DNA of 64,000 nt from Blasia pusilla (taxonomy: Eukaryota). This document shows positions 6,778 through 46,080 of this stretch, piece after piece; the stretch's first letter is position 1, and each line of letters begins with the position of its first letter. The DNA lies in NCBI GenBank assembly GCA_050084515.1, contig CM114271.1, positions 16,802,001 to 16,866,000 of the forward strand. Direction: 5' to 3'. A program made the translations under genes and the position numbers. The notes under the pieces were generated by a model. It saw only the letters and a program-made list of their open reading frames with translations. It was not told the DNA's origin and did no database searches.

Positions 6778-6824
6778 TGTCGTGCGCATACACATCGCTA
6801 CACAACATACATCGCTGTCACCGA
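6778..6824 (-). mobile_element. Terminal part of B repeat of an older, oppositely oriented copy of the Gypsy-DNMT family
   Basis: TGTCGTGCGCATACACATCGCTACACAACATACATCGCTGTCACCGA is the near-exact reverse complement of the B-repeat end at ~16257-16303. Confidence 0.8.
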
Positions 6825-7346
6825 TGTCACGACTGTTAGGATAGATTGGTGGGATCTAGCAGAGTGTCTGCACGAATAGTGGAGGACATGCCCAGGAGGT
6901 TGAGGATGACTTGTTGAGGCCCCGGGAAACCTGAGAGAGCAGGTTTTCCCTTCGTTTAGGCTCATTTGGAGCCATATAGAGAAACTTACTATTCGGGTAA
7001 GTTTCCATGTTGGAGATAGTTGACTTTCCACTTTGGGACATGGCCTTGGACCCGCTACAGCAGGTCAAGAGCCAAGGAGGTAACCTGCGAGCATAGGTTA
7101 TTGTTGAGAGGGCTTGGGAGAGGGAAGGGGTTATACGTCCAAGAGAGAGAGCTTGAGAGCTCATTCTCTTTTTGTTGAACCTCTTGGCATGAGGCGGCGG
7201 AGCTATGGTCCCTTGCCTTGTGAGTATAACCCAAGCCTCTCATTAGGAGAGTGGGTTTGGTTTGACATGAGAGAGAGTGCACATCTTTAAGAGCTATGGT
7301 GTGAGATGGTGTGAGATGATGTAGAGAGGGATTGGATCTTACTTTA
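6825..7346 (+). repeat. Terminal repeat A1
   Basis: Direct repeat of 16306-16818; similarity stops after TTGGATCTTACTTTA. Confidence 0.9.
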
Positions 7347-8799
7347 CAAAGAGAGAATGAGAGAATGAGAGAGTGAGAGAGCTTCATGGGGGAGCTCGCT
7401 AGTCACTCGCTGTTTTTGCAGGTTGGGGACCGTGTTCCCCATTCAGCGGCTCATGGGAGTGCTCACTGGAGCAAGGGCTGCTTTGATTATTCTTTACATT
7501 TGCCGATTTTTTGTGTGGAAGAGTGGCGCGCGGAAGCGCTGCCCAATTTCTTATAGGGATGGATTATGGGGGTGGGTTTCCCCATGTCGATGCTCTCGGG
7601 AGCACCATGTAGCTTGTTGATTTGTACTTTTACAGGTTTTATATTTTCGTTGGGAGAAATCAGCGCGGAAGCGTTGCCAAATTTTGTGTAGGAGAAAGAG
7701 ACATTGGGCTTTACAACATTCCCCTTCAATTTCTACTGGAATGTTTGATTCTAAATATTTTTTGATGTTGTTGTAGACCGTGAAGCTGTGCACGCTATGC
7801 AATAAACAATGCGAAATTTGGAGTTGCGAGCAAAAAGTAAGGGTCAATCTTGCAAAACTGCCATTGCTAGGTAATTTTTAGGGTTAAATTGTTCAAACCC
7901 TAAACCAGCCGCCACACCGGTGGTGGCCGTCGCCGTCAACAGTCTGCCGTTGACAGTCATGCGGCGGTGGCCGTCACCATCAATGGTCAATCGTCCGTTG
8001 TCTACCCTTTAGTTTCCATTGCCGCCATTACAGAGTGGAGGGTCTTCCACGACGTTCGTTGATTCTCTAACTTGCGTCGCCAACACGTTCTTTGTTTTGG
8101 CCGCCATCTTCATCGCAATTTCGTCATCAACCAGTGATGGCAGATGACCTCCAATTATGGTGTTTGAGTTTTGATTTCATGCTGCTATGTTGTGATTGGT
8201 AGCCGCTCGACGATGATCGAGTACCCGTCGCGGACGCCCGTAAGCCGCAACGCGCCCGCCGATTCTTTGCGCGTGCCGTGCGCTTTGTGGCGCACCGCAC
8301 CGTCTCGATCGCGGAACCGCTCCTTCACTAAGGAGCAGAGCATATGAATTTCTGATTGAGGAGGGTATGCCGCCGAGTGCCGCACTCCATTCTTGAGAGT
8401 GCCGTGCTGTTTGTAGCCGTTTTGTGCTGCCAGTGCCGCACCAGACCGCTCGACTTGCATGGCACATCGAGGAGGTTGAGTAGCATCAGTACGAGAGGAG
8501 TACGACTTGCTGATTGGAGGAGTTGTCTTCACAACCGAGTTGGGGTTGAGATTTGCAATTGCTGAGGAGCGACATCGATATGTGTTCAGGTTACCCATTA
8601 TGGTCCTTTACCCTGCACGTGTGAGGGATTATGGGATTTGGGTAGTTTATTTGGGGATATTGGGTTGTGTGGATGATGAGAGAATCATTCATGTATGTGG
8701 TTTAGGGTACATAGACCTGTGTGGGATGTCCGGAGTTGAGGGTAGGTTGTCGATGAGATGATAGCCTGGTCAATTTGCCGCACCACGCCGCCGGAGTGG

Positions 8800-10300
8800 C
8801 GCGAGGTTCTGAGGGTCTCCACGTGAGGGACCACCTCGACCTCCTTCTATGTCATCGTCAGACAAGGGGGAGGGTGTAAAGGAGTTTGTGAGCACATCGC
8901 CACATATTGTGAGTGGTCCTATCAGTTGGGCGTACGAGATGGACGACCGGGGTAGAGGACCGCGTAGGTTTTCAGGTGCACTAGGCACGATTGAGTTGCA
9001 CAATTTTATAGCAGAGTTTAGGAGTTGGTGCGACTCCTAAGTAGAGTTTAGGAGTTGGGCTAGGAACTCTAGAGAGTTTAACCCGTTTACAACATGGAAT
9101 GGTATGTTCCAGCATTTAGAGGGGGCGCCCATGGACGATTACGATGAGTTCTCTCAGAGATATGCACGTGAGATCGAGGCGTGGAGGCTCTACTATGACC
9201 CACATTATATGTCATGGACGAAGCTGTTCCTAGATGAGGAGGAGGAGTCAGGAAAGGCTATTTCCTCTTCCACTAGTGACGTTTTAGGAGGGATCACTCG
9301 CACTGGAGCAGTTGCACCGTCTAGTCGGGTTCGTCCCAAGTTCAACCATGTGGTTGAGTTCTTTGCTGAGTTGAGGGCGAGCTACGAGAGGGTACGGACG
9401 GAGAAGTTGCGGAGCATCTATGACTTCTAGAGGCCCCCAGGTGAGAGTTTGCGTGAGGCTTACACTCGCTTGCGCCGGTTGATCAACGTCACTCAGGGGG
9501 TGACATAGGCTCAGGCTATCCAGTCATGGTACGCGATGCTGGATCGGACCTTGCGGACACGGGTGCGAGAGTGGGTGCTTCTTATGAACACCTCCCCTAC
9601 GTTGAGAGATGTTTTTAGGACAGCGGAGAACATTGAGCGCAACATGGCGGAGGAGAGCGTAGCCACCATGGGTTCTGGGCGAGAGCAGTCACAATTGGCT
9701 GCACCACTTGTGCAGGAACGTGGACTCCGAGATAGGTCGACTGTGGCACCACGAGCTTAGGGAGGATACCGGGAGGCCGTGCCACAGAGATCTGCGTATG
9801 AAGACGCAGCCGCCTACTATTACTTGTTGGTCATGTGGTGGAGCCCATCATCAGCGTGATTGCACTCGTTAAGGTCATGGACGTGTGCCTCAGCATGGAG
9901 GAGGAGATGATGCTGCACCAGGAGGTTATCAATGTGACTATTTTCAGAGGTATGGTCAAACACGCGCCAGATGTTTCAATTTACATCCTGAGTTACGTCC
10001 GGACCGAGGGCCAGAGAGGGCACCAGCGCGAATAGCCGGTCCGGTTGGGCCTAGAGATCGTGCACCAGGTAGTCCCGTTGGGGGACGAGGAGCTGGAGTT
10101 GCACGACAGGATGGGGGAGCTGCCCGTGGAGGAGGTAGAGTACCACCACCTAGACGCGCCGAGGGAGATTCCGGAGGTGAGGCTGGGATGGCTGCTAAGA
10201 TATAGCAGCTACAGGAGCAGATTGCCGCTATGGCATTGAGGTTACCTGATGCCAGATCCGTGGAATCGACATCATATGGAGCATCCAGAGATATGGAGGA
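8800..10300 (+). pseudogene. gag: gag-like region with two zinc knuckles
   Basis: FSGALGTIELHNFIAEFRSWCDS, F(Q)RPPGESLREAYTRLRRLI, knuckle CWSCGGAHHQRDC (9825-9863) and a degenerate second knuckle CDYFQRYGQTRARC; same blocks at 50500-51570. Confidence 0.75.
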
Positions 10301-10859
10301 TCTTGGTTGGATGTGCAGGGTTGCCCAGATGGAGGCCGCCATAGTTGTGACGTGTGGAGCAGCCACAGAGTTGGATCCATAGCAAGGGGAAGCCAGAAAA
10401 TAGACTAGGCTTCCTCAGTCTTTCACGTTGTCCGAAGCGATGAGGACCCCATCGATGGGTCCTCATCAAAGTTCCTGGAGAGTTGATGATGTTGTTGGTG
10501 TGCAAGCACGGAGGGCGATGGGAGAAGCGAGTGCGATGACTCCTATTGTTGATGCTCAGGAGGGGCATGTGTCAAGCACGTTGTTGGGGATGGCCACCAT
10601 TATGTACCACACTCATTTATTTTCTGCTTCCGATGTTATGATGTTGGGGGGTACGCCCGCCGAGGCTTTTCGGCTGGCCGCTTCACTCTGTGAGCGCGGA
10701 GTTGGAGTTCCTGCATCACGTTCAGAGGTGATTGCAGAGGAGGTGATGGACCTGCCCTTGGAGCGGATGCTCGGGCCATCCACGTTAGATTCATGGTAGG
10801 CTGCGGCTGATAGGATGGCGGAGATGCCCACTAGACCCGTGATAGAGCGTGCCATGGCT

Positions 10860-11290
10860 TCTCTTGGTGTTGTGTTGCTGGATAACCGAGGAGAGGTCTT
10901 CCAGTTGGTGAGTCCCGGAGGTAGAGCTTTTAGTCCACAATGCGTCTTGTTGGATTCAGGAGCGCAACCCCGGATGTTGGGGAAAGCGTCATTCAGAGGA
11001 TTGGGCTTGACGAGAGCCGATGTGGAGCATTGTCCATTTCGGATATAGACATCCTTGGGTGGAGCGAGTATCACACAGTATATCACCCGACAGGAGGTCC
11101 TAGTGAGGATTTTCCTGGGACATCCTACAAATGAGTCCGTGGTGCGAGCCAAGGCGATAGAGACTAATGCAGAGTCCTACGACGTCTTGGTTGATGAAGT
11201 AGTGTTATACCCGATGGGGTTAGACCTAGATTATTGGGAGGAGTCAACGTCCTACAGACAAAGATGGTAGTCAGGTGATGGGCGCCCTAG
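10860..11290 (+). pseudogene. Retroviral-type aspartic protease
   Basis: VLLDSGAQP active-site motif; downstream YDVLV(GG)AVL-type motif is better preserved in the copy at ~52720. Confidence 0.8.
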
Positions 11291-11639
11291 CTCATTACCC
11301 GTTCCATTCACTGGTGGAGTCATCGAGCGACGGCAAGGAGAGGTGGCGACCTTAGTAGTGCCATCACTTGGCCTAGTGATTTGATTGAGGGACATGTCCA
11401 TATAGAGGATACTCCCGTTCTTGAAATTTTTATGGAGAGGAGTGTTATGGTAGTCGCATCATTCCCTGGAGGAGAGGTGCCGTTGTGGGGCTCGATTGAG
11501 GAGCTTCGACGATTGGCAGATGAGTACGTGCAGACCGCGTGGAGCGAGGCGTTTGCACCGAAGCGTGACGGGTCTGAGGAATCCAAGGTAGCAGGGAGTG
11601 CTACGATGACACCCTTGGATACCACACCCATTGTGTGGT

Positions 11640-12620
11640 GTATCCCGGAGGAGGGTATTCGAGTGTTAGATCTCTTTGGAGGGATTAGCACCGGGTTAGC
11701 TGTTATTTTACAGGCAGGAGTGCGAGTGTAGCAGTACCTGTACGTGGAGAGTGATGATGTTGCGAGGCGCGTCTCACTACGACTTGTGGCACAGTTATGC
11801 CCACGTTTTCTCAACTTATTGTCTGCGTTCGTGGTACAGGGATACCAGAGTTCCCTACAAAGGGATATTTCATTGTTGGGGGCGCAGGACTTAGAGCGGG
11901 TAGGGACCATTGATTTGGTCATTTCCGGTTGGCCATGTCAGGGCCAATCGAGTGCTGGACAAGGCAGCTGGTTGGCTGACACTCGGTCCACGTTGTTTTG
12001 GGAGATGTTGAGGGTCTTACGGCAGTTGCAGGAGCACCAGTCTCGTTCTCGAGCCTACATTCTGGAGAATGTGCTGATCTTAGGAGACTCCAGGTCACGG
12101 TGGTGACGAGTGCTCATCAGGTGCGTGCCTGAATCGGCCCAACAGTGTTCTTGGATGCGGCAAGTATAGGTTCTAGAGCCCATCGCCACGTCTATGGTGG
12201 ACCAACTTGGTGCCCCATGCGGTGTTATCGAGGGCGTATGTGAGAGTGGAGCGCCCCTCCCATTTGTTAGTGGATTCCATTCTGGATCCAGGTCGTCAAT
12301 CACAGGCAGTGAGGCACGATGATCGACCACCGTTGACTGTGGTCAACAAAGTAGGTAGGCCGGCCGCGAGCAACCTTGCCCACGTTTGTGAGTTTTCCCA
12401 CTTCCTATGCATACAAGGAGGCGGGTCCTGGCTTGGTTTGGGATGACCAGGTTCAGCGGTTGGTGGAGCCCAACGCCGATGAGAGAGAGCAAGCGATGGG
12501 ATTTCCCACAAGAGTGACGGCAGTACCGTCAGTGTGAGAGGCATCACGACGCCATGTCTTGGGTCAGGCGATGGACCTGAACTGCTTGACATGGATCCTC
12601 AGCTTAGGACTGGCTGAGTA
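11640..12620 (+). pseudogene. C5 cytosine DNA methyltransferase domain, DNMT3-like, inside the polyprotein
   Basis: Motif I IRVLDLFGGISTG, motif II YLYVESD, motif IV DLVISGWPCQGQS (Cys at 11936-11938), motif VI YILENV, motif VIII RAHRPRLWWTNL, motifs IX/X EREQAMGFP and RRHVLGQA, all in canonical order. Confidence 0.92.
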
Positions 12621-12959
12621 GCGCCATATGAGATCGCGACAGATCACAATGGTTGCGTTGGTGAGCCCCATGCCTACCAAGATGGTGGAGGCAGTGGCTG
12701 GGGGCAAGACTTGAGAAGATCTACACACCAGGGGAGATCGGGAGAGACACCCTTGGACTTCTTGGGATGTTTTGCTGGTACGTGAGGAGATGATAGCCAC
12801 AACATCGAGCGTGGTTCCGGGCATTGCACGTGGAGGAGATCAGAGTTTGCAGTTGACTGCAGGAGAGCGGCCGAGTGTTGTTGTTCGAGACGGGGTTGCA
12901 CCATAGCAACCACCGATACCTGCGCCAGAGATTCCTACCATAGTTACGATGGAGACTTG

Positions 12960-14310
12960 GGAACCACATATGGGCCCTAAGTTGACAGGAGGAGAGCGGC
13001 GCCGGATACATCAGTTCCTCAGGAGTTATAGAAGCTGCTGCGTTTAGCATGGAGGATTTGGGTATGCCAAAGGGACCGAGGATCCGCATTGAGTTGTCGA
13101 GTGATACGTCGATCTTCCGATGACCCTACAGGAACAGTGATATGGAGAGGGCTCTGATTTAGAGTAGGAGCAAGGACTTGGTCGGAGCAGGACTAGTGGA
13201 GATGTCGCATGGGGAGTATGCATCTGCCAGTGTCATGCCTGCCAAGAAGGATATGCATGGCAACTGGACAGATAGGTGGATGTGTGGGGATTACCAACCT
13301 ATCAATCGGTAGACGAAGCCCGATAGGTATGCCATGCCCACTCCTGAGGAGATCTTTGATGGGATTGGTCACGCAAAGGTCTTTAGATCATTGGATTTGC
13401 GAGCTGGATACCATCAGCTGCCACCAGATTGGAGGACAGGCAGAAGACGGCATTTGGGGGCATCGATCCTCACTGGAAGGATTGTTTGTACTAGTGACGG
13501 TTCTAACCATTTGGGTTAAAGAACGCCCCGACTGAGTTTCAAAGGGTCATGGATAGGATCTTGGCTAGTCTGGATTTTGCTAGATGTTATATTGATGACA
13601 TCGTAGTCTTTAGCGCCACGATTGAGGAGCATGAGTGACATCTACAGGAGGTGTTTCGACGATTGCAATTACATGGGCTAAAGCTACATCCAGGCAAGAG
13701 CAAGTTCTTCTACAACCAGATTGAGTACTTGGGTCATACAATATACCCAGGGGGCCTTGGTGTTCAGAAAACGAAGGTAGAGGCTATCTCAAGCATTCCA
13801 CGCCCTACAGATGTGATCCGTGTTCGCGCATTCATGGGATTGGCAAACTTGTATCGGCGGTAGGTCAAGGGATTCAGTTCAATTGCAAAGCCGCTAACCT
13901 TGCTGACCAAGGTGGATCACGAGTGGCACTAGGGGGATGAGCAAGAGCGAGCATTTCAGTTGCTCAAGGACAGGTTGACGTCCGCGCCCATCTTGAGGAG
14001 ACCGATCAGGGGGTGTCCTTTCCAGTTGCACGCACATTGGAGCGGTGCTCACCCAACATGATGATGAGGGTAGAGAGTTCGTGGTGGCTTACACTAGCCG
14101 CTCAAACAAAACTGCAGAGGCAAAGCACAACTCGTATGAGGGTGAGTGCTTGGCTGCAGTGTGGACTGTTGCGCATTTCAGGTGTTACTTATTCGGCAAT
14201 CCTTACCATCATCATTGATCATCAACCAGTGAAGTGGTTGTTGGAGTCCGATAAGCTTACAAGGAAGCTTGCGAGATGGGCTCTGTTGTTGCAGGAGTTT
14301 GATTTTTAGA
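12960..14310 (+). pseudogene. pol: Gypsy-type reverse transcriptase and RNase H
   Basis: MPTPEEIFD, SLDLRAGYHQL, PFGLKNAP, ARCYIDDIVVF, LKLHPGK, YLGHTI, IDHQPVKWL, KLARWALLLQEFDF. Confidence 0.95.
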
Positions 14311-14699
14311 TGGTACATAGACCTGGGACGCTCAACCAAGATGGAGATGGGTTGAGTTGTAACCCATGCCCGAGTCAGCGAGATGCGAAAGGAGCTCGAT
14401 GGCATGGAGAGAGTGATGAGGAGTCAGTGCTAGGATGGCACGCGTTAGCCTATTTAAGCATGTTGGATATGGAGAGCCAGAGTGTGGAGACTTCGATGGC
14501 GAGGTCTAGTGGAGAGTCCTTGGATCCCGAGGCCAGTGAGGAGACGACATGTGGCCGAGATATTTATGATGATGGAGTAGTCTTGGAGTACCTTCGTACT
14601 GGCAGCGTTGCGAGCACCGTGGGTGCTAGAGAGTGGGATCGGATCCTACAGCAGGCCAGACGGTTCCGTTGGGAGGGGACACATATTTTGAGGGTTTGG

Positions 14700-15850
14700 G
14701 AGGATGGTAGGGTACGCGTAGTGCCACATCCTTTGTAGAGAGCACGACTAGTGCAGCATGCCCACGAGGAGTTGAGTCACCTTGGGGTGAAGCGGACGTA
14801 CAACTTGCTCCAGATTCAGTATTGGTGGCGAGGCATGCAGACTGATGTTCAGCAGTTTGTTGCCAGGTGCATGGTGTGTGATCAAGTCCGAGCATCCTTC
14901 AATGCTCCGACTCTACAATTGCATCCATTACCAATCATAGGCTTAGGGTATGGATGGAGTTTGGATTTTGCAAGACCTTTGCCTTTAACGGAGCGTCACA
15001 GTCGTTATGTGTTGGTGATGGTCGAGCACTTCTCGAAGTGGATCGAGTTGGTTGCATTGCTTGAGAAAGCAAGTGAGGGAGAAGCTTTCGCCTTCCTTGA
15101 CACAGTGAGGGGTCATTATGGCGCACCGGCTGAGGTGTTGAAAGACTAGGGTACAAAGTTTCGCGGTGAGTTCCAGGCCTTCTGTGATCAGGCGCTGATC
15201 GGCCACCGCACGACTTCGCGAGATCATCCTGAGGCGGATGGATTAGTGGAGAGAGTTGTGCAGACGGTGAAGAGGGGCTTACGCAAGTATGGATTTCAGA
15301 GAGGTCACCTAGGAGATTGGGACCTCCAGTTTCCGTGGTTGGCGATAACATACAGATTCAGGAGGCAGGCATCCTTAGCGTCTTTTTCACCGTACTTGCT
15401 ACTTTATGGCTGAGAGCTAGATTTACTTGCAGCCATTCGTCGAGATGCTAGTGAGGTTCTGTACCTTGATGAACCAGATGTATGGATGCGAGCATGTTCT
15501 CACAAGGCTGAGTTGTTTTGGAGAGTGATGCCCATGGCGTTCGAGAACTTGGCGATAGCGCAACATCGGGATACGTTGAGGTATGCGACTATTCGGGGTG
15601 GTGGTTATTGACCAACTATCCGGAGGTTTCATCAGGGAGATTATGTCTACTTGCAGCACACGGCACCGACGACGTTGGATGTGACTGTAGGGCGCACTAT
15701 CTTGAGAGTGCGTGACGTTTTGCCATCCGGTGTTCTCTTCCTGGAGGGACGCGATGGTATGGTATGGAAGGACCATGTGCGTAATTGTGTGCCATGTCAC
15801 CTTCCTAACATTGATGGTACAGTAGATCCAAGCTCAACAGTAGTTCCTAC
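14700..15850 (+). pseudogene. DDE integrase with HHCC zinc finger
   Basis: HAHEELSHLG...CMVCDQ zinc finger; WSLDFARPLP, VMVEHFSKWIE, D*GTKF, HPEADGLVER core motifs. Confidence 0.92.
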
Positions 15851-15857
15851 AGGCTTG

Positions 15858-16002
15858 CGTTGTATGTAGTGTGGTTCTCCTCGTGGTACGGCCACGATGC
15901 TAGTCTATGATGGATATTTGAGAGGTTGGCATATGACATGTCTGATGCCACCTCTCACTAGGGTTCCTCCGGGACGATGGATATGTCCCAGATGTACATA
16001 GA
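15858..16002 (+). pseudogene. C-terminal PHD finger (degenerate in this copy)
   Basis: RCM*CGSPRGTATMLVYDGYLRGWHMTCLMPPLTRVPPGRWICPRC; the C4HC3 pattern is nearly intact in the copy at 47775-47925. Confidence 0.85.
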
Positions 16003-16187
16003 GGAGATACTAGGTAGGTTTTGATTCCGAATTTTTCTGTGACATGGATGACAGGAAGGCGATTAACGATGGGGCCACATGTGCACCCGGCCTTTCTGCT
16101 CTTAGCGTCTTAGAGATGTATGTCGTGGTAAGTAGGGATAGATGGCTATCTGGAGTTAGAGGTACCTAACCACCAACTAGGAGGGCG

Positions 16188-16946
16188 ATTGGATATATTT
16201 TGGTACTTCTCGCCTTAGTGTATGGATGCCATGAGTTAGCATGAGATCGTGTGTGTTCGATGACAGCGATATATGTTGTGTAGCGATGTGTATGCGCACG
16301 ACAGTTGTCACGACTATTAGGATAGATCGGTGGGATCTAGCAGAGCGTCTGCACAAGTAGAGGAGGTCAAGCCCAGGAGGTCGAGGATGACCTATTGAGG
16401 TCCCGGGAAACCTGAGAGAGCAGGTTTCCCCTTCGTTTTGGCTCATTTGGAGCCATATAGAGAAACTTACTATTTCAGGCAAGTTTCCATATTGGGGATA
16501 GTTGACTTTACCCTTTTGGAAGTGGCCTTTGACCCGCTAAAGAAGGTCAAGAGCCAAGGAGGTGACCTTCGAGCATAGGTTACCGTTGAGAGGGCTTGGG
16601 AGAGGGAAGGGGGTATACCTCCAAGACAGAGAGCTTGAGAGCTCATTTTCTCTTTGTTGAACCTCTTGGCATAAGGCGGCGGAGCTATGGTTCCTTGCCA
16701 TGTGAGTGTAACCCAATCTTCTCATTAGGAGAGTGGGTTTGGTTTGACATGAGAGAGAGTGTACATCTTTGAGAGCTATGGTGTGAGATGGTGTAGAGAG
16801 AGATTGGATCTTACTTTAATTGGAGATATTTTGGTACTTCTTGTCTCTGTGTATGGATGCCATGAGTTAGCATGGGATCGTGTGTGTTTGTGTATGTCGT
16901 CAATAACAACGATGTATGTTGTGTAGCAATGTGAATGCTCACGAAA
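16188..16946 (+). repeat. 3' terminal block B1-GT-A2-B2
   Basis: B1 16188-16303, spacer GT, A2 16306-16818, B2 16819-16946; purine tract AGGAGGG just upstream of B1. Confidence 0.9.
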
Positions 16947-16951
16947 ACTGA

Positions 16952-19360
16952 TATATAGTCTCATCGATAAACCATCCTCAACTCTAGACATCCCACACAG
17001 GTCTATGTCCCCTCAACCCATACGTCCACAATGCTCTCAGCATCAACATAAAACCCAATATCCCAAATAACTTCCCAATACTCAGAATTCCCTCACACGT
17101 GGAGGGTAAGAGATCAGAATGGGTAACCTGACAATAATGTCAATATCGCTCCTCGGCAATTGCAAATCTCGACCCCAACTCGGTCATGAAGACAACTCCT
17201 CCAATAAGAAACTCGTACTCCTCTCGTAATGACGTTGCTCAAACCTCCTCAATATGTGGTGTGGATCTAGCGGTATGGTGCGGCACTGGCGGCAGGGAAC
17301 GCTTACACAACAACACGACACTCGATAATGGGATGCGGGACTCCGCGGCATACCCTCCTCAATCAACAATACACACACTATGCTCCTTAGTGAAGGAGCG
17401 GCTCCGGGATTGAGATGGTGCGGTGCAGCCACGAGCGGCACGGCGCGGAAATTGGCAGCGCGTTGCGGCTACGAGGGTGACAACACGGTACTCGATCGTC
17501 CTCGAGCGGCTACCAATCACAACATAGCAGCATGAAATGAAAACTTAAAGACCATAACTTGAGATCACCTGCCATCTCTTATTGATGACAAACTTGCGAT
17601 GACGGTGGTGGCCAAAAATAACTACGTGGTGGCAACGCAAGTCAGAGAATCAACGGTCGTCGTGGAAGACCCTCTTGTCGTGTGCCTACTCTCCTTGAAC
17701 GTTAATCTTGTTTGTTGCGGAAGCGTGCGTTCAGTAGGTCACGCTCTCAACGCTGATTTGCATCCAAACACGCACTTTGGTTAGTTGGGTCTTGGATCAA
17801 TCAGCGGGGTTACTTTCCGAGTTCTCGTCTCGGACTCTCATCAAGCTCAACCTTCCTAGTTTCGCGGTTTACAACACGGGCAAATCTCGAAAGACTTGGG
17901 ACAGACTTTCTGGTCGGTTAAGGAACCTGAAACGGCGTTTCGCGCCTAGCGGTTCCAACTGTCCGATGGACATCCAATGAGTTCCTCACCAAGACTCGCA
18001 CGAAGTGAATCTCGGGTTGGAATCCAAGTGTGGCGTACAAAGTCCACTCCCTTGGATCAGGTTTGGGTTTCGGGTTTCCGTGCCAAACTCCCGTTCCATC
18101 CCGTGCCTCTGAAACGCCGTTTGGCGCCCAAAGTGGGGTTTCGTTTCCCGAGACATCTCGGAGAAGGTCCTCCCTTACTAGTACTTCTGGGGATCTCCGG
18201 GGGCCCCCTACATTTAGGGAAAAACACCCGGGCCTCTCCAATTGGCCCTCAACCCGATTGCTCTCTCAATCGTTTTTGGCCAATATCTCAGTATGTACTT
18301 ATGCGTTTGCTGAGATCTTTAGTGCGTTGGAAGCGTCTCAAGCTCAGCTTTCCAACGCGCTCTTATTTGTCCCGAACGCATCTTGGAGCTCAACGTTATG
18401 GTCCTAAACATAGACAGATTCTCCCAAACGTTAGTCGTGTTCCAAACTGGTTCTCACCTCTTTGGCAACCAACCTCCCAAGACTCAACTCATCTCAAGTC
18501 TTGGCTCGCGTTTGGTCTAGGTTTCCTGGTCGCGACCACTAACGCATGAAACGCACAACTCTGTTCCGCGTTTCGTCTCTTAGACTTTTCCAAGAGACTC
18601 TTCCAAACGCCTCTCCAAAGCGCAAACCTCGCAGCGTGAGTTCCTTTGAGTTCTGATGTTTCGCTTGGCGCCTATTTGGTGTTGTTTGGTTATGAGGGTC
18701 GTGACACCTCCACTCCGTAATGGCGGCAATGGCAACCAAGGGTGGACAACAGCCGAACGCGGCTCTGAGCAGCGCTAGGCAACGGTGGCGGCCGACGATG
18801 GACAGTTGACCATTGATGGTGATGGTTGGCCATCAACGGCATACCGTTGATGGTGACTATGACAAGGACGGCCGCCGCCGGCACGTTGGCTGGTTTAGGG
18901 TTTGAAAATTTTTACCCTAAAAATCGCCTAGCAATGGCAGTTTTGCAAGATTAACCACGACGTTTTGCTCGCAAATCTAGATTGTGCACCGTCTATTGCA
19001 GGACTATAGTTCCGCCGCCTCATGCCAAGAGGTTCAACAAAGAGAGAATGAGCTCTCAAGCTCTCTCTCCTTAAGGTATATCCCTCCCCTCTCCCAAGCT
19101 CTCTCCATGATAACCTATGCTCCCAAGTCACCTCCTTGGCTCTAGACCTAATTTAGAAGGTCAAGAACTACTTAACAAAAATAGAAAGTCGATCATATAT
19201 TCAAAACGGTACTTATTTAAAATGGTAAGTTCCTCAATATGATTCCAAATGAGCCGAAATGAAGGGGAAACCTACTCTCTCAAGTTTTTCGGAGCCTCAA
19301 TATATCATCCTCAACCTACGGAATGTGTTCTCCACTACTCGCGAAGGCACTATACTAGAC
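16952..19360 (-). mobile_element. 5' part (partial A repeat and 5' UTR) of an older, internally deleted copy of the Gypsy-DNMT family
   Basis: ~16960-17675 and 18707-19000 match the reverse complement of ~7795-8760; ~19003-19360 match the reverse complement of A. Confidence 0.85.
17676..18706. mobile_element. Solo LTR of a second family (~1 kb)
   Basis: TGTCG...GTGACA termini; flanks CCTCT/CCTCC; the host 5' UTR continues on both sides; homologous to 45175-46080 and 61821-62453. Confidence 0.85.
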
Positions 19361-28059: not shown

Positions 28060-31000
28060 CTAGAAGAGTATGGGTATGATGGGATCGAAAGGCCCAACGA
28101 AAATGGGACTGGTGACGGTGTGGACGGCGAACTCATCGGTCCACGTGATGGATCCGAAGCTTTCAGTGTCTGGAAATAGAACTTCCATGGACACGTTGAA
28201 CGAGAGGCGCTCGTTGACTCGAGTGAAATTCAACGTGGAAGGGGTGACGGTGATGAAAACTCCATCCGGCGAGTTCACGGTCACCTCGTAGTTGGAGATC
28301 GCGGGGCCGACGTTCGTGACTGTTCGAATCACGCTGGGCGTAGCCTTGGCGAGTGTGCTCAACCCAATCGATGGGTAGTTCAGCTCCTGGGGGCCCGTTA
28401 GTTTTTCGGGGCATGAACGCCAGCGGTTTTGGCTCGTGATTGCTCGGAATTGATCGTCCGTGTAATTCAGGTTACACAGAAAGATCGCATAGTCTTCGCC
28501 CTCCAGATCGTAAACCAGGCCGGGGTCCACGGCGCCCAGCACGTTTATGTATCCCGATCCCCAGTCGAAGACGTCACCGGCGCTCAAAGGAGTCGCTGCA
28601 AAACCACGGCCAATTTATGCGATAGTCCTCGGGTCAGCTAATGGCAAAAGCATCTTCTCAACTATACATCACATGATACCGGCAAAAGGAATGTTGTTGT
28701 AATGGGAATGCAAGCTTCTCGTCATTTAATCAAAGCGCTTCCGAGATATTGTGTGAAAATTCTGAGGACTCCTAAGGAACCGATCCTCACGACGAGACCC
28801 TGCAATATCTCAATCACACGTTCGTTTATGCATCAATCGGTCGGTAGTGTAGTGATTGAAACTTGTTCCCACCTCGTCGAATTTCTGCGAAGAGTGTGAC
28901 CGACTAATCACGGATTGCCGTTATTGGCAAACGAGTTTCGAAGTTTCATTATTTGTTTTTATTTCAGGTCTTCGAGAATGAGGTTTGGAGTCAAAAGCTG
29001 TCCTGCGAATGAGTGCGAGTCGCAACTTTTTTAATGTGAGAGACAGTACTGTACCCGTGGTCATGATAGCAGACTTGATCGCTGCCGGACTCCAATCTCT
29101 ATGCTTGGCCTTTACGATCGCTGCCGCCCCGCTCGCATGTGGGCAGGCCATCGATGTGCCGGAAATCACAGTGTATTTGGTGGTGCGAGTACCTTCGGGT
29201 GTCAGCACGCCTTCGAACTCTGTCCAAGCTCCCAAGATGTCCACCCCAGGTGCAGCGATATCGGGCTATACATGCAACCATGTTCAACATTTTCTAAACG
29301 TGAAAAGGGGCAGTTTAGTCCTGCGAATGTCTGCGTTTAATAATAATTAAACGTAGACATTCGCAGATTCATATGGCATTGCGCGCGCGTCGCTGTAACT
29401 GATCGACCAAACTTCACGATCTACTGCCTGAAAAACGGGATCGGGTGTTAGCAAGGATTGAAATAAATACCTTGAGAAGAGCAAATGAGACGTAATAGGG
29501 ACCGCGCGACGAAAATTCTGCTACCACCGGACCGTCACTCTCTTTCAGAATCGTTTTGGTCCTTCTAATGGTCGCAGTGGGAGTAGTGTTCGAGCTGTGA
29601 TGACAATAGGGAAGCACGGGTATGAGTATTCGATCGTAATCTTCAATAATCTCAGCTGCGGGAAACGATGAAAAAAACAATACATTCTGTGCGCTCTCAA
29701 TTCGTATGCTCGTGTAAACCGTGCATATCTCGGAAATGTGTGTGTTCGGGGCCACACCTTCGGCAGTTTGAGAGGTAGTAATCCAACGCTGTCCTTTCCG
29801 CAACGCCAGCCGTCGGAATGGGAGACACATATTGCTCCCATCGGAATGAATATGGGTAACGTGCTGTGCTGGAGAATCCGGAATCAATCAGAATGAGACC
29901 ACTTCCGTTGGCATCTTTCACTGTTTGATCTGCTGAAAAGGGAACCAACGATCCATTTGGGCTCGGGTAAACGTTTGCGTCATAACAGATCACTATCTTC
30001 CCCGCCGCTTTCTTGCTGTCGAGTGAGCCTGGTACGCAGTAACTGCAAGAGGTGGAAATCAGACAGTGAGCAAACGCGCGATCGAGTGCGCACTGTTTTC
30101 CTTGCTAGGTACACGACGCCCGTACGCCTGCCCTCAACCACGGAACCCATCAATCAGCCTAAAATGGGTTCTGTGTGAATCTGCAGTTGACATTTCTACA
30201 GATGAACACACACTGTCTAGAAGAACCATATTAGATCGATGATGGTGAGGCACTCAACCACTTACTCTGTAAAATTTGCCCCATCTGCTGGAATCTCAGT
30301 TGCATCCACAATTGGCAGCGACTTCTCCTCGAAGTCGAATTGCTTTACACCTCCCCCCTGCTCGCGCGCACGGATTCAATTAGAAAACGAGGTAGCGTCA
30401 TCGGACCTGCATTCGAAAATAGAGCGATGGTGTCTACCTGTAGATCGAAAGATCTCGGTATTAATAGCTTATGGCGCGCGGCGCTATGAACCGATCATGG
30501 ATCGATGCAGCAGAACAGGCGCTGCTTTGAACCTTGAGATCCTGGTACGTGCATCGATGTCCTCAACCGCGGCGGTGGCGATGAGATCCAGTTCAAAGAA
30601 CCGTGAAAGAGGAGCAGGCGCGGCACCCGCACATGGCGCCGTGAGAGAATCGGAAGCAAACGCAATGAATTTAAACACGTTCTGTACACTGTAAGGTCGA
30701 AAGTCATGTGAGAATCGAGCAGCTACTGACCTGGATGATGGTGCCATCCCCTAGTTCTATTTCGGCGACGAATTCTCGATCCATGGTACTTGCTGCGACA
30801 GTGAGAATCCAAGGTGCACCGTTGTTGAGTGTTCCAAATGCAGGCCCGTCATTCCCGGCAGAGGCCGAAAAGAGGATGCCTTTAAGAGCTGCGTGGTAAG
30901 CTCCGATTGCGATCATGTCATTGTAGTAATCCGGTTGCCCTCCACCTCCGATGCTGAAGGAGATGATGTCCACTCCGTCGTGGACTGCCTGGTCGATCGC

Positions 31001-33293
31001 AGCTAGTAGGTCTGCTTCCGCACCTATTCCCTCCCAAATCGCCTTGTAGACGGCGATTCTCGCGGCGGGTGCTCCGCCGGAGGCGGTACCCCGGGCGAGT
31101 CCAAAGAAGCTCGCATTGGCAACCCTTGCACCCGCAGCAGTGGACGCACAAAACGTGCCGTGGCCTAGTGTGTCCCGGGCGGAACGTAAGCCGATATTCC
31201 CACGAGGGAACTCGGGATTGCTCTCAAACGCTTTGCTGAACCATCGCGCACCTATGATCTTCCTGTAGGCATTTCAAGTAACAAGGAACGTAAGGGGTCG
31301 AGGACGTCGGAATTCGAGATCGGTCCTATCAGTTTCACTCACGAATTCACTGAAGACGACGAGTTTGGAAACTTTGAATTGTGCGCACATGTCTGCTAAA
31401 TCACACAGCGTCGCGCATGTTGCGAACAGTTCTTACTTGTTGCAGTGCTTGCGAGGATCAAATTGCTCTCCCTTGATGCATTTGCCCTTCCATCTCTTAG
31501 GAATGCAGGAGAGTCCTTCATCATTGAAGCTTTCAGACTCGGGCCAGATGCCTGATGCACAGGCGCACACATTTCGTATTCCTCAATCTCCGGTGCAAGA
31601 AAGAAAGAAAGAATGAGCAATAAAATGACGCTCCCTAGACAGATATCTAGAACGATGAATCAGAAACATGTTGCCTACCCAATCAATCAGACCATGATCT
31701 ACATAAATCATGTCAACGCTCCGGAGCCCTTGGCCACCAGTTACAATGCAGTCACCTTGATGAAACTGTGTGCTCTCTTTTGTTGGTTAATTTTAAGAAT
31801 CCAATTTGGAAACCGTGTCTATAGCGTGCTAGCAAATAGAATGGCAAAATACCCGAGTCAATGAGACCGATTATGACGTCTTCCCCGAATGAAGTGTTTG
31901 GCCAAATCCCAGAATTCGGGTTTAACCCAAGGGATGTCCAAGTCCTCGTGGTTTTGGTTTTCAAATACCGACTTGGCCCAATAGATATAACTTCTGGCAG
32001 TTCTGCAAGCCATGATTACATACGTAAGAGACTCAGAGAGAAATCCGGATTTATGGTCATGACCAATGTCGACATGATGAAATGCCAATCTTGCAACAAA
32101 GCAGAGTGATTTGAACGCCTGTGGGGGATATTCAATAGATTCTTTCGCTTTTATTCTTATTGTAGAAGATCCGGATTCGGACTGACGATTAAACTCCAAG
32201 AAAAAGAAACTACAACACACTAGTGCATTCGATTATTGTTATTCGCTAGACGGCTCCCCAGAGTAACATTGTAGAGAAATTACTAATTCCAGAGATATCG
32301 ATTCCAGACTATGCTCGCGGTGCGCGAGAGAATCAATGATTGCGCGAATGAAAGAGGAGAATTTTCCAACTTACTGCCGAGGACCTCTGCTTGAGTAGGT
32401 GTGAGCAAAGCTGAGAATCCGCTGAAGCCATGCTTGTAATGGTACAAGACACTGTCCAAAATTTTCTGGTTGCTGCATTTTGCCATACACCATAGCCAGT
32501 CAGCCTCAGCTATGAAATGAGGACCCTCTCGAGCAGTCGATTTTATGACTTCCTCGCCATCCGACTCTCGAAGTTTTCATGCTCAAAGAGTTGTGTTATT
32601 TCTCATTTCTTTTTAGCCTCACTCCATCGAGCGGTCATTGATGATTACAAGAAAACCCAAGCAAATTTGCAGTACTTGTGCAACCCTAAACCCTAAACCG
32701 TGAAAAGCTCTGAACGGGCTGCTCAAGATTCCTCCATGGCCAGGTGGTGGCGAATTCGTTAGACTCGTCTTTCGAGATCGGGAGACTTGTTTCTGGATGG
32801 ATTTCGAAGGAGTCTTTACCTCTCAAAGACATGTGACAAGACATGGTGGTGAGCCGAGTGCGTGGCTTCAATGCTCGGATGGTTGTTTGCACCCATATAG
32901 GCAATATACACCTGCGAGAAACATCTGAAGATTTAAGACGAGAGTATTTGGACACATCCACACTAAAGCTCCAGAATGCGCTGAATTCGAAGTCCTCATG
33001 CATGTACCCTATCTCAATCTAGCCTCCGCGCAAAGTTCTAGGCCATGCTCCTCAGGATATACCGCAAGTGCATATCAATTAATGGTGATGATCTCGGAGC
33101 TTTCTATGTAAGCGGATACACGAGAGCCGTGATGATCACAGGTTATGACCGCGCTAAGACCTGGAGGCTGGAAAGAAAATTTCACTACCTTAGCTTGTTG
33201 CGCGTCTGCACCATCGGCATGGTAGAATGCGAATTGGGAAAGCGCTCCTAGAAGCAGAAACAATGCAAGCGGTTGAGGCATCCGGATCTTCAT
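28060..33293 (-). CDS. Subtilisin-like serine protease (plant S8 subtilase), ~11-12 exons
   Basis: Signal-peptide exon [23 protein letters not shown]...AK|gt (~33189-33293); I9 prodomain VYIAYMG (~32820-32911) and [12 protein letters not shown]; catalytic D in [17 protein letters not shown] in [26 protein letters not shown] in [11 protein letters not shown]-terminal Fn3-like LNYPSI...RTVTNVG. GT-AG introns; internal exon boundaries approximate. Confidence 0.92.
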
Positions 33294-34344: not shown

Positions 34345-35110
34345 GAGTCGGGGAGAGGGAGGCAGGGAGTAGGGTCGAGCCCGGTCGACCGTGTTCGTCT
34401 CATTTGCAAATGAGACCGTGTTCGACTTTTGCAGCAAATTCTGCTGAGCCTGCTCTCTCCTCCCTGGTTGCTCTCTGCCCGTGGCCGCGTGACTTGCGTC
34501 TGTGCTTTCTCGTGCAGCCTGCTGTCAAATGCTCGCAAATCGCCGCCTTGGCGCCATGCCCGCACAAATGCGCTCAAATCGTCGCTTTGGCGCCTAGGGA
34601 TCGGACTCATCGGAGCTTCAGCCTTCTCAGCATTGCGGCAAAGACAGACAAGCACCCTCATCGGCTCATCCTCGATTCCTCATCGTGCTCTCTGTCTCAG
34701 ACGCTGCCACAGTTCGGTGACCTTCGGAAGTTCGGATGCTGGTACTGTCCGAGCCTTGGTCGTGAGAGAGGGAGGCAGGGGAGTAGGGGTCGAGCCCGGT
34801 CGACCGTGCTCGAGGCATTTGCCGCATTTGCAACCTTATGATGTTTTGCAGCAAATTCTGCTCTCTCCTCCCTGGCTGCTCTCTCCCCGTGGCCGCGTGA
34901 CCCGCGTCTGTGCTTTCTCTTGCAGTCTGTGCTTTCTCTTGCAGCCCTGCTTGTCTGCTCGTCGTCGCCTTGGGCGCCTAGGGATCAGACTCATCGGAGC
35001 TTCAGCCTTCTCGTTAATCTCTCGGCATTGCGGCAAAGACAGACAAGCACCCTCATCGGCTCATCCTCATCGCGCTCTCTGTCTCAGACGCTGCCACAGT
35101 TCGGTGACCT
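34345..35110 (+). repeat. ~380-bp tandem duplication inside the hAT element
   Basis: GAGAGGGAGGCAGGGAGTAGGGTCGAGCCCGGTCGACCGTG...CCACAGTTCGGTGACCTTC at ~34350-34725 and ~34765-35112; partial third copy ~35223-35310. Confidence 0.85.
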
Positions 35111-35908
35111 TCAGTCCAGTCTGGTCCGGAAGCACAACTCACCCGGCGCGAAAAGAGAATAAAGGCCTCACCGTACCTCTTCGGCATCCTCATCAGGGCT
35201 CGGACAGTAATTTTTAGAAGATTAGTTTTTTACATTTAGATCAGGGGAGTAGGGGTCGATTGTGCTCGAGGCATTTTATGAGTTGCAACTCATTTCTGCT
35301 CTCTCCTCCCTGAATCCTGAATGGTCGTGGCCGCATATTTGCTTACTCTCTGCTTGTCTTGGGCGCCTTGTTGCTTGATTGCTCAGTTCTTATTATGTTA
35401 AGCTCAATCTTTGTATTGCTCTCGCTGCTCGATCGCTAATTCACCTTTGCTCCATCTTTTTGTGATTGTAAAGCTTGCCAGCCACCGCACCGTAGGTGAA
35501 AAAAAGTGGAAGAAATCGGACGAAATCGGCTGTCTCATCAACTTCCGGGAGTTGGACAGGCGAGTGTAACTCACTCAGAGTCTCAGACGCTCATCCAAGC
35601 CTCATCCCTGCTATTAGGACTCAGGTTTTGGGACTCGGGAGAGAGTTGGGAGACCACACTTGCATTCTCCTCCTAATCGCCACTCGCTTATTTTCCTGTA
35701 TTCTCTCAGGAGTTAGGGAGTTGGGGCCCGAGGGAGTAGGGGTCAGGGACTTGGGTTTTCGTTGCACTCTTGTATCTCTCTCTCTCTCGCTCTTTGTTGA
35801 AGTTTTGGGAGCCTTTCATTGGTTCTGTAACTTCTATAAACCCTTGAAACCGTTTTAGCCTAAACCCTTTACAAAGGGTTTCAAAGTAGTGAACTCTCAA
35901 AGTTCCTT

Positions 35909-41356: not shown

Positions 41357-42183
41357 TTAATAATCTCTCAGCTTCGCCGGTTCTCCTATGTTGAAAGGAT
41401 CGTAGGAGGTGATAGCAGCCTCGCCACCGTCCACCAGTAGGTTCTGACCGGAGATGTATGCGGCATCATCGCTGCACAAAAACAGAGCGGCGTTGGCAAC
41501 GTCTCCTACGTTGCAGCTCCGACCTTTGAGGTTGGAGACCTTCGCAAACAGCTCGGCCAGACGCGGTAAATCAAGTCCAGCATACGATGGGCTCAAAGTC
41601 TGGGCCAGCGCGAGTGTCATGTCCGTGGGTACAGTGATCGGAGAGATGCAGTTAACACGTATTCCGTGTTTTCCCAAATGGAACGCCCCGGCTTGCGTGA
41701 GGCCCGGGTGATTCATCTTGTTGAGATTGTAGATGAGCGAAACGATGTTGCCGGTGCGCACAGATGCGAAGCTCGCGGTGTTGAGAATGACACCCGTTTT
41801 CGCAGGCACCATAACTCTAGCGGCATGCTTCATTCCCAAGAGGACTCCGCGCACATTGATGGCCGTGCACCGGTCGTAAGTATCCATGTCTAGGGTCCAG
41901 AAATTCTCTAAAGAAGGATACACCGCCGCGTTGTTGTGCATGATGTCCAGCTTGCCGAATTCCCTCACGGCGAAGTCCACTGTCGAGGAGATGTCCTCCT
42001 CTTTGGTGACGTCGCAGTGTCGGTAAATTGCGTTTTGGCCGATTTCTCGCGCTGTCTTTTCGCCTTGCTCGTCCCTGACGTCCGTGACGATCACTTGCGC
42101 TCCGTGTGCTGCGAACAGCTTAGCCGTGGCCGTTCCGATCGCCCCCGCTCCTCCTGATATGATTGCCACCTTGTCGTCCAGCC
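41357..42183 (-). CDS. Short-chain dehydrogenase/reductase (ABA2/tasselseed2/secoisolariciresinol dehydrogenase-like); main exon, short first exon unresolved
   Basis: After an AG acceptor: LDDKVAIISGGAGAIG, HCDVT, GKLDIMHNNAA, NTAS, YNLNK (YxxxK), GIRVNCISP, DVANAALFLCSD, YISGQNLLVDGG. Confidence 0.9.
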
Positions 42184-45174: not shown

Positions 45175-46080
45175 TGTCGCACCCCTACTCTCCTTGAACG
45201 TCAATCTTTAGTATTGCGGAAGCGTACGTTCAGTAGGTCACGAACTCATCGCCGATTTGCACCCAAACACGCACTCTCGTTAGTCGGGTCAGGTATGAGT
45301 CGGAACAGACTTCCTGGTTAGTCCAGGGATCTGAAACGGCACTTGCGCGCCTAGCCATCCCAAATGTTCAACGGTCCTCGGATGTGTTCTGAACCGAGAC
45401 CCAAGTAATTGAGTCGCGGGGTGGAATCCAAGAGGGATGTCTAAAATCGCCTCAATGGATGGTGCAGGTTTTCCAACCCAACCCCCAAACTCGCGTTCCG
45501 TTCCATGCCCTTGAGCCGCCCCGCGGCGCCCAAAGTGGGGTTTGGGTTCCAAGCACTCTCGGAAACCTTCTTTCTTACTAGTACTTCTGGGATTCTCCAA
45601 TAACCCCTCCCCTTTGGGAAAAGAGGGTCGGGCCCTTCATTGTGGCCCTCAACCCGACTCCACTTACAATCGTTTTCGGGTTGTATCTCGGCCGCTGCTT
45701 ATGCGTTTGCAGCAATCTTTAGTGCGTTTGGACCAACTCTCCATAAGCTTTCCAACGCACCCTTATTTGTTCCAAATGCATCTCGGCGCTAAAAGTTATG
45801 GCCATAAATACAGTCAGAAACTCTCAAACGCTAGTGGCGTTCCAAATCCGGATCTTTCCTTTGGCAACCCACTTCCGAGACTCGACTTCTTTCAAGTCTC
45901 ATTCCGCGTTTGGTCCAGGTTTCTCAGTCGCGACCATAACATCTGAAACGCGACTCCTTGCTCGCGTCTCGTCTCTTGTCTCCTCTTTGAGACAACTCCA
46001 ACGCGCAAACCATCTTAGCGTGAGCCCGCTAATGTTCCGATGTTCCGCTTGGCACTTGTTTGGTCATGAGGGTCGCGAAA
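45175..46080. mobile_element. Solo LTR of the second family with 5-bp TSD
   Basis: TGTCGC...GTCGCGA(A)A; ATACC on both sides (45170-45174, 46081-46085). Confidence 0.88.

Follow-up and report, generated by a model that had tools for sequence, protein, structure and literature searches.

We analyzed a 64,000-nucleotide stretch of the genome of the liverwort Blasia pusilla (assembly GCA_050084515.1, contig CM114271.1, forward-strand positions 16,802,001 to 16,866,000). This whole stretch is referred to as the window, and positions are counted from its first base. The window holds broken copies of a Ty3/Gypsy-type retrotransposon, one of them with both ends and the others partial, together with a host gene and other repeats. 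In three of the copies a C5-cytosine methyltransferase (DNMT) domain lies between the regions corresponding to protease (PR) and reverse transcriptase (RT). These copies are best explained as decayed members of a Ty3/Gypsy-type family with a single gag-pol polyprotein that carried a DNMT3-type de novo methyltransferase between PR and RT, of the kind known as streptophyte Gypsy-DNMT3. We put the probability of this reading at roughly 80%.

Identification of a methyltransferase domain in three copies of the element

We mapped the domain over its whole length in the three copies with a hidden Markov model (HMM) made from relatives. The following domains were found.

11630-12606, plus strand: DNMT3-like C5-cytosine methyltransferase domain of copy 1 (HMM positions 2-326, reading frames 2>1>0>1, motifs I to X in normal order)
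53169-54154, plus strand: DNMT domain of copy 2 (frames 0>1>2; PC-stop and GNV)
56953-57943, minus strand: DNMT domain of copy 3 (HMM mapping; PYQ and KNI)

The domain was complete and colinear in all three copies (HMM positions 2 to ~326), and its motif order is unpermuted because HMM positions ascend along the DNA in each copy. The Pfam family PF00145 matched an open piece of copy 1 (11732-12106, plus strand) with an E-value of 3.6e-11 (43.5 bits, cut-off 22), and the E-values of the matches exclude a chance origin of the domain. Three-frame translations and rows read through stops contained the motifs LDLFGGISTG, GWPCQ, ILENV, EREQAMGFP and LGQAMD, as well as SRAHRPRLWWTNL, which is clean in copy 2 and spans a frame change in copy 1. 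At motif IV, copies 1, 2 and 3 read PCQ, PC-stop and PYQ, respectively; at motif VI they read ENV, GNV and KNI, and only the first retains ENV.

All three DNMT-bearing copies are broken by stops and frameshifts. There were 3, 5 and 12 stops inside the domain in copies 1, 2 and 3, respectively (read-through rows), and 3, 2 and 2 frame changes (HMM mapping).

The likeness between the copies extends far beyond the domain. Copy 1 (8793-14466) and copy 2 (50349-56020) were 88.9% identical over 5731 bases, and 10220-12576 of copy 1 was 73% identical to 59325-56986 of copy 3. The initial annotation of this DNA had proposed that the domain was replicated with the element, as this extended homology bears out. 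The coordinates that it gave for the three domains were correct to ~15 bases by HMM mapping, the motifs it quoted are present, its readings of motif IV hold in translation, and the search for PF00145 that it had called for gave the match described above. It had also described every copy as dead, in agreement with the stops and frame changes in each.

Organization of the element

Of the copies in the window, copy 1 alone has both ends, and we used it to define the parts of the element. The parts between the terminal repeats are as follows.

6779-16945, plus strand: copy 1, 10,167 bp (self-BLAST, repeat alignment, terminal motif search, and tblastn of relatives)
7347-8953, plus strand: leader, from the 5' repeat to gag; stretches of it are found again, in unchanged order, in a partial copy on the minus strand, 19359-16959
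8954-9685, plus strand: gag-like region (tblastn, residues 9-249 of protein P0002, 50.6% identity, E 1.3e-64)
9825-9863, plus strand: CCHC zinc knuckle CWSCGGAHHQRDC, read in the open reading frame (ORF) 9663-9872
10572-11309, plus strand: protease-like region (tblastn, residues 27-270 of P0017), with D-S-G at 10953-10961 (VLLDSGAQP)
12943-14043, plus strand: RT (tblastn, residues 691-1006 of P0017, 68-72% identity)
14024-14693, plus strand: RNase H (RT_RNaseH, E 9.9e-7; tblastn)
14739-15413, plus strand: integrase, comprising an H2C2 zinc finger and a DDE core, with an in-frame stop at 15147-15149

With ten related proteins as tblastn queries, the order in copy 1 was gag, CCHC-PR, DNMT, RT, RNase H (RH) and integrase (IN). 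The high-scoring segments indicated that the reading frame is interrupted nine times between 8954 and 14693. The DNMT region spanned 11351-12771 by tblastn, with the domain proper at 11630-12606. The leader correspondences found by self-BLAST were 7798-8002 with 19000-18794 and 8038-8758 with 17674-16959, preceded by 6855-7211 with 19359-19001.

Support from Pfam differed along the element. In copy 1, RVT_1 was found at 13639-13863 with an E-value of 4.8e-5, under the Pfam cut-off; Integrase_H2C2 was found with an E-value of 1.6e-16 and rve with 0.0016, the latter under the cut-off. The same integrase region matched residues 1106-1240 of P0030 at 68% identity (tblastn). Copy 2 has intact ORFs for RT (54718-55173, RVT_1, E 1.3e-17) and RNase H (55468-55992, RT_RNaseH, E 1.4e-37). 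The protease was called from the VLLDSGAQP motif, from 47% identity to a Marchantia protein and from 40% identity (E 3e-21) to P0331; the piece aligned to P0331, which carries Asp_protease_2, is the copy 2 ORF 52071-52706. Pfam zf-CCHC was found in relatives P0100, P0360 and P0361 at the position equivalent to the zinc knuckle. Pfam gave nothing for the region 3' of the integrase, and no chromodomain was seen in the window, P0100 or P0360.

The element thus has the domain composition of Gypsy retrotransposons (PR, RT, RNase H and a DDE integrase), with DNMT within Pol. The initial annotation had reported a Ty3/Gypsy-type element with a methyltransferase between protease and RT, which is supported by the colinear tblastn matches on copy 1, the Pfam domains and the intact relatives described below. 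Neither the ORFs of the window nor the close relatives gave a match to PF00589 (tyrosine recombinase); Integrase_H2C2 and rve are present instead. The presence of a DDE integrase and the lack of a tyrosine recombinase rule out a DIRS element.

Terminal repeats and other copies

The repeats at the ends of copy 1, the extents of copies 2 and 3, and the further copies in the window are as follows.

6779-6803, minus strand: 25-base terminal motif, identical to 16278-16302 in inverted orientation
6825-7346, plus strand: 5' long repeat, 89.5% identical over 523 bases to 16306-16818; this is equivalent to repeat 'A' of the published arrangement A-coding-B-A-B
16188-16302, plus strand: first short repeat, 80% identical to 16819-16944
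16306-16818, plus strand: 3' long repeat (self-BLAST)
16819-16945, plus strand: second short repeat, which forms the 3' end of the element (self-BLAST, repeat alignment, motif search)
49339-56020, plus strand: copy 2, without the 5' repeat and rearranged on the 3' side (self-BLAST)
56986-61017, minus strand: copy 3 (leader, gag, PR, DNMT), ~27% diverged from copies 1 and 2 and ending after DNMT
46843-49233, minus strand: 3' part of a further copy, integrase to the short-long-short repeats, 81.6% identical to 14547-16915
62454-63998, minus strand: 3' part of a further copy, 82.7% identical to 15412-16947, which may continue past the window end
16959-19359, minus strand: 5' part of a further copy (long repeat and leader), directly next to the 3' end of copy 1 and split by a different repeat (17685-18706)

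Copy 1 therefore consists of an inverted terminal motif, a long repeat, the leader, the coding region and a short-long-short set of repeats. The short-long-short triplet was found at all three complete 3' ends, including those at 47592-46843 and 63228-62454; only one 5' end was available. There were seven matches to the 25-base motif in the window (≤4 mismatches), all of which lie where a short repeat ends or at the 5' end of copy 1. These repeats are split direct repeats of the DIRS-like type (A-coding-B-A-B) in copy 1. They are not classical long terminal repeats, which would be two identical direct repeats bounding the element together with a target-site duplication.

A 720-base inverted match between 8038-8758 and 17674-16959 could be taken for terminal inverted repeats. 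We dropped this reading because the other two 3' ends have no adjoining inverted match; the second member of the pair is the leader of the partial copy on the opposite strand.

The sense strand of the element is much richer in G than in C (copy 1: G 31.0%, C 20.4%) over 6779-16945, 49339-56020 (plus strand) and 56986-61017 (minus strand). GC skew is ~+0.2 across plus-strand copies and negative across minus-strand copies.

An unrelated repeat of ~1 kb is present at 17685-18706, 45184-46078 and 62444-61821. Its occurrences are 70-87% alike and lie beside or inside three element copies in varying orientation. It contains a 199-amino-acid ORF (17950-18549) that had no Pfam match.

The domain is of the DNMT3 type

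Among solved structures, the window fragment best matched catalytic-domain chains of DNMT3A, DNMT3B and DNMT3C (E 1.2e-7 to 1.8e-6), with tobacco DRM (E 1.9e-4) and then M.HhaI (E 2.2e-3) ranked lower. With a profile of 19 family members, the E-values were 1.9e-26 for DNMT3A, 3e-23 for DNMT3B, 3.4e-12 for DRM, 2.8e-8 for HhaI and 4e-4 for DNMT2, and DNMT1 was absent among the 54 structure matches of this profile. A search of the ESM Atlas with a 124-amino-acid fragment of a window copy was uninformative, returning solely generic PF00145 clusters of phage or bacterial origin. The structural comparisons support the assignment of the domain to an unpermuted DNMT3 type. The initial annotation had called it DNMT3-like and not permuted as in DRM, and both parts of that description agree with DNMT3A as the best structure match and with the ascending HMM positions.

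Identity with DRM would require the permuted order, with motifs VI-X before I-V; the order here is I, IV, VI, VIII, X. We rejected four readings of the domain or its carrier: a nested fragment of a host gene, DRM, a DIRS element and contamination with a bacterial Dcm. The element domain shares its catalytic domain with host DNMT3 and DRM, DNMT3A and DNMT3B being the best solved matches. Host DNMT3 enzymes are described in excerpts of PMC12344493 as single- or low-copy, with N-terminal regulatory domains that are PWWP/ADD in animals and a domain of unknown function in land plants. The element domain, in contrast, is multi-copy and intronless, lacks PWWP/ADD domains and is flanked by protease and RT, and does not answer to that description.

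Related elements in other streptophytes

We searched protein collections for relatives of the domain. A word-based search for longer proteins gave 30 matches at 38-61% identity, including 21 from Marchantia polymorpha, 2 from Calypogeia fissa and 2 from Sphagnum. An exhaustive HMMER search gave 1397 proteins at E ≤ 0.001, 241 of them at E ≤ 1e-10. Architectures were labelled by BLAST of gag, PR, RT, RH and IN pieces against the HMMER matches listed, and two architectures were seen among the labelled matches: PR-DNMT-RT-RH-IN and RT-RH-DNMT-IN.

The order seen in the window is present in single proteins of other species. Pfam placed DNMT, then RVT_1, then RNase H in the single gene models P0017 and P0025 of Marchantia. 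In P0100, zf-CCHC, Asp_protease_2, DNA_methylase, RVT_1, RNase H, Integrase_H2C2 and rve all lie in one ORF of 2188 amino acids, and because this is a single ORF, an intact in-frame DNMT fusion exists. Cluster members from Closterium species and Mesostigma viride also have DNMT after PR. The proteins of Marchantia polymorpha (e.g. Mp_4g09160, Mp_6g11220 and MARPO_0091s0058), Calypogeia fissa and Sphagnum fallax/troendelagicum belong to the same family as the window element, with colinear gag-PR-DNMT-RT-RH-IN. They are 50-60% identical to it over the DNMT fragment and 68-72% (tblastn) over RT, or 80% over 235 tree columns. They come from other species and sub-lineages and are deposited as 'hypothetical proteins'.

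Trees of the two domains place the window copies with these relatives. The DNMT tree had 84 rows, excluding matches that covered <80% of the HMM or were in >2 pieces. The three window copies formed one clade (support 100), nested in a 21-row clade (100) that held all Marchantia rows, Calypogeia, Sphagnum and four further rows (FastTree; IQ-TREE LG+G4). The Closterium rows formed a supported clade of their own among the PR-DNMT-RT rows, with weak deep branches (54). In a tree of RT-RNaseH with 52 rows, a branch (SH-aLRT 99) separated copy 2 and all 8 rows whose DNMT precedes RT from the 43 rows whose DNMT follows RNase H. The position of the domain thus tracks the lineage of the element.

Catalytic motifs I, IV, VI, VIII and X are conserved across Marchantia, Calypogeia, Sphagnum, Closterium and other groups. 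Of the 18 bryophyte-clade sequences, 14-18 retain them, depending on the position, and 15 have the catalytic cysteine. The motif IV proline is replaced by glutamate (GWECQ) in 8 of 9 rows of the Closterium clade. In the RT-RH-DNMT-IN group, too, glutamate is more frequent at this position than any other residue (13 of 28), and the cysteine is invariant in that group and in the Closterium clade.

The RT-RH-DNMT-IN group (P0055, P0091, P0098, P0136, P0142 and P0312-P0351) is larger, has a related DNMT (30-45% identity) placed after RNase H, often has a C-terminal PHD finger and forms a separate clade in both the DNMT and the RT trees. A named member is QJQ45_005505 of the chlorophyte Haematococcus lacustris. 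We found no description of this architecture in the literature examined.

Three further proteins have other arrangements. By precomputed Pfam lists, P0352 has RVT_1, DNA_methylase and Phage_integrase and is of the DIRS type, and P0353 has a Copia-type RT (PF07727); the latter also has a weak match to the DNMT profile (E 9e-24). Pieces of P0028 (Marchantia Mp_7g09570, 612 amino acids, with a PHD-type annotation) match PR, DNMT and integrase of the element, which may reflect domestication of a fragment or a chimeric gene model.

Selection, transcription and decay

We estimated the ratio of nonsynonymous to synonymous substitution rates (dN/dS) by the codon-wise method of Nei and Gojobori on an alignment of the three copies that followed the reading frames of copy 1 and excluded codons with gaps or stops, with 95% bootstrap limits. 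For the DNMT domain, the three pairs gave 0.45 (0.27-0.72), 0.32 (0.24-0.46) and 0.36 (0.25-0.50). For gag, the values were 0.26-0.36, and for CCHC-PR 0.44-0.61. Every upper 95% limit for the domain was below 1, and the domain was under purifying selection while the family spread. Because the copies also decayed neutrally after insertion, these values overestimate the ratio in active elements. The values for DNMT are as low as those for gag and PR, which argues that the domain was not a neutral passenger. The initial annotation had suggested two checks that bear on this, that the methyltransferase be in frame with PR and RT and that dN/dS not be near 1; the intact relatives P0017 and P0100 have it in frame with both, and the ratio between pairs of window copies was 0.32-0.45.

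Sibling copies of the element are transcribed at a low level. There were 197, 231 and 231 RNA reads on copy 1 in three runs, and they cover the DNMT bins. Most of these reads (186, 221 and 217) were 95-99% alike to copy 1 and only 11, 10 and 14 per run were ≥99% alike, so that the transcripts come mostly from sibling copies. In the X20 run, 27 of 30 bins had the first mate on the minus strand, 2 were ties and 1 was opposite, which suggests that sibling transcripts are sense if the library is of the usual stranded kind. In a DNA run, 113,254 contig pieces matched copy 1, indicating that the family is abundant.

The substitutions in copy 1 are biased. At 46 of the 68 variable places listed, a G or C of the other contigs is matched by A or T in copy 1. 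With changes polarized by the third copy, 80 of the 150 changes specific to copy 1 were C>T or G>A, at rates of 12.8% in CG, 13.0% in CHG and 3.6% in CHH contexts. A repeat silenced by plant-type methylation would be expected to show such a bias. From this pattern, we infer that the host silenced these copies after insertion by CG and CHG methylation and that deamination then decayed them.

Interpretation and alternative explanations

Several points weigh against the interpretation of these copies as remnants of a selected Gypsy-DNMT3 family. No copy within the 64-kb window is intact, and none of the gag or protease ORFs there was assigned to a family by Pfam. We saw no target-site duplication flanking copy 1 (at 6779 and 16945), although this is uninformative, as a further repeat copy adjoins the 3' end. 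The trees are unrooted and were built without host DNMT3, DRM or the RT of DNMT-less Gypsy elements, and cannot count acquisitions or establish a single origin. The Mesostigma protein P0105 and a further protein, P0057, have the PR-DNMT order, yet they lie near the other architecture group on weak branches. The dN/dS of 0.32-0.45 exceeds the <0.2 reported for the element of Klebsormidium nitens named KnitGypsy-Dnmt3 (de Mendoza et al. 2018, PMC5890265, in the portions available), and mixes selected change with neutral change after insertion. The proposed kinship with that element is one of architecture and repeat layout only, compared by published description. In the only direct test so far of a Gypsy-borne DNMT, the K. 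nitens domain produced no methylation in yeast, a result that its authors call inconclusive. The sense orientation of the sibling transcripts depends on an assumption about the library.

In active elements, the methyltransferase would be produced as part of Pol. It would then methylate the element's own new complementary DNA (cDNA) or the fresh insertion, and a new copy would enter the genome already bearing host-like methylation. The same role was proposed by the authors who described the K. nitens and Symbiodinium elements (PMC5890265, in part). The initial annotation had further suggested that the enzyme might be cut out of the polyprotein and packaged. That the Pol-made enzyme acts on its own cDNA or new insertion, the copy arriving pre-methylated, is a tentative proposal to which we give somewhat less than even odds.

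A different substrate is the alternative that survives best, and we consider it unlikely. A real and selected methyltransferase might act on RNA, or on host chromatin in trans, dampening defences or limiting the element's own copy number. The sequence itself is silent on the substrate, and RNA methylation has been raised for a DNMT borne by a long interspersed nuclear element (LINE) (PMC5890265, in part). However, the nearest solved relatives are the DNA enzymes DNMT3A and DNMT3B, with the tRNA enzyme DNMT2 matching at an E-value of only 4e-4, and the domain of SymbioDIRS-Dnmt3 methylated CG in DNA in yeast (same source).

The wider history of the family can also be read in two ways. PR-DNMT-RT Gypsy elements could be an ancient streptophyte-wide family that has kept a selected DNMT since before land was colonized and that a liverwort transcribes to this day. 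The lineage was seen directly in Mesostigma, Closterium, liverworts and peat moss, and its presence in Klebsormidium was taken from the literature. We regard the proposal as evenly balanced. If it is true, land plants harbour retrotransposons that write cytosine methylation themselves, and we found no paper describing that. Alternatively, Gypsy elements of bryophytes or streptophytes may have acquired their DNMT3 independently, with convergence accounting for the likeness to the K. nitens element. Retroelements have captured DNMT repeatedly: DIRS, LINE and Gypsy cases are given in the available parts of PMC5890265 and more in those of 10.64898/2026.05.21.726589. There are also two insertion sites in Gypsy polyproteins (PR-DNMT-RT and RT-RH-DNMT-IN) in addition to the DIRS-type P0352 and Copia-type P0353, and the likeness to K. 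nitens was drawn from a published description and not from sequence. Against these points, K. nitens is reported to have the same unusual split-repeat layout together with the Gypsy domains (PMC5890265, in part), and two further streptophyte algae, Closterium and Mesostigma, have the PR-DNMT order; one old lineage fits this better than repeated capture at the same site. Independent capture seems to us decidedly improbable.

It is very unlikely that the domain is a relic passenger, captured once and carried without function for the element. All three window copies are broken and no activity of the K. nitens domain was seen in yeast (PMC5890265, in part), but constraint on the domain, with upper limits of 0.46-0.72, equals that on gag and PR, and the catalytic motifs are conserved across genera, with intact long ORFs in relatives. 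An artefact, in which a host DNMT3 fragment or another element was nested by chance in one Gypsy copy or the region was misassembled, can be dismissed even though the region is a nest of rearranged repeats, given the same place and strand in all three copies covering the region (one of them 27% diverged), the same order in proteins of five other genera, and the many contig pieces from the DNA run that match copy 1.

Other features of the window

There is a subtilase gene with introns at 28060-31273 (minus strand), with Peptidase_S8 and fn3_6 exons; this host gene lies between nests of repeats. An intronless short-chain dehydrogenase of 281 amino acids, similar to secoisolariciresinol or zerumbone synthase, is encoded at 41357-42202 (minus strand). 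Its best four matches are from Riccia (two) and Marchantia (two), at 54-58% identity, with Calypogeia sixth. The observed/expected ratio of CpG is 1.15 in this gene and 0.57-0.78 in repeats and background.

An ORF at 35864-36556 (plus strand) encodes a zf-C17orf113 zinc finger (E 1.1e-11), which is often found in genes that were domesticated or that derive from transposases, and another ORF lies at 37469-37897. A tandem duplication at 34353-35112, in a GC-rich stretch, has units of ~370-390 bases that are 76% alike.

Comparison with known systems

Transposons that carry a writer of methylation invert the usual picture of transposons as targets of cytosine methylation. The initial annotation had implied that the element was novel, such elements being no standard feature of land-plant Gypsy lineages. 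As stated, this novelty was not supported, since KnitGypsy-Dnmt3 is published (PMC5890265) and the relatives in Marchantia, Calypogeia and Sphagnum were already deposited. The kind 'streptophytes (Gypsy-DNMT3)' is named in the part of 10.64898/2026.05.21.726589 that was available, and excerpts of PMC12344493 mention DNMT3 members embedded in retrotransposons, naming Copia and DIRS. Full-text searches, whose scope did not extend to supplements that may hold more, found no paper describing such elements in liverworts, mosses, Closterium or Mesostigma. Sequences from K. nitens were not recovered in the homologue, representative or cluster searches.

Few algal cases are in print, and the locus and its relatives extend Gypsy-DNMT3 into liverworts, Sphagnum and two more streptophyte algae. 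This wider host range favours an association that is old and maintained by selection over an oddity confined to a single alga. Judged by sequence, a DNMT-bearing Gypsy family is a standing feature of at least some land-plant genomes. The window copies, being dead, add no function to the host; Marchantia polymorpha, with its many copies, is a genetic model in which the role of a transposon-encoded DNMT could be tested.

Of the published elements, SymbioDIRS-Dnmt3 of Symbiodinium resembles the window element in its split direct repeats and in carrying a DNMT3-type domain in Pol. It differs in having a tyrosine recombinase rather than a DDE integrase, in its DIRS class and in its dinoflagellate host, and its authors judged the acquisition to be independent. 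Its domains carried out de novo CG methylation of DNA in yeast (all from the available parts of PMC5890265).

KnitGypsy-Dnmt3 is the closer counterpart by layout. It is described as having a DNMT3-type domain in Pol, Gypsy domains and DIRS-like repeats in the arrangement A-coding-B-A-B (de Mendoza et al. 2018, Fig. 4c legend). The two elements share an unpermuted DNMT3-type domain in Pol, Gypsy composition, the absence of introns and split direct repeats. According to the same paper, in part, they also share conserved catalytic residues, purifying selection on the domain and host-silenced copies. They differ in that KnitGypsy-Dnmt3 is in a charophyte alga with dN/dS <0.2, whereas the window element is in a liverwort with dN/dS of 0.32-0.45 and all copies dead. 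The Gypsy-DNMT3 kind is thus already known, and the window family is a liverwort addition to the Gypsy-DNMT3 elements of streptophytes.

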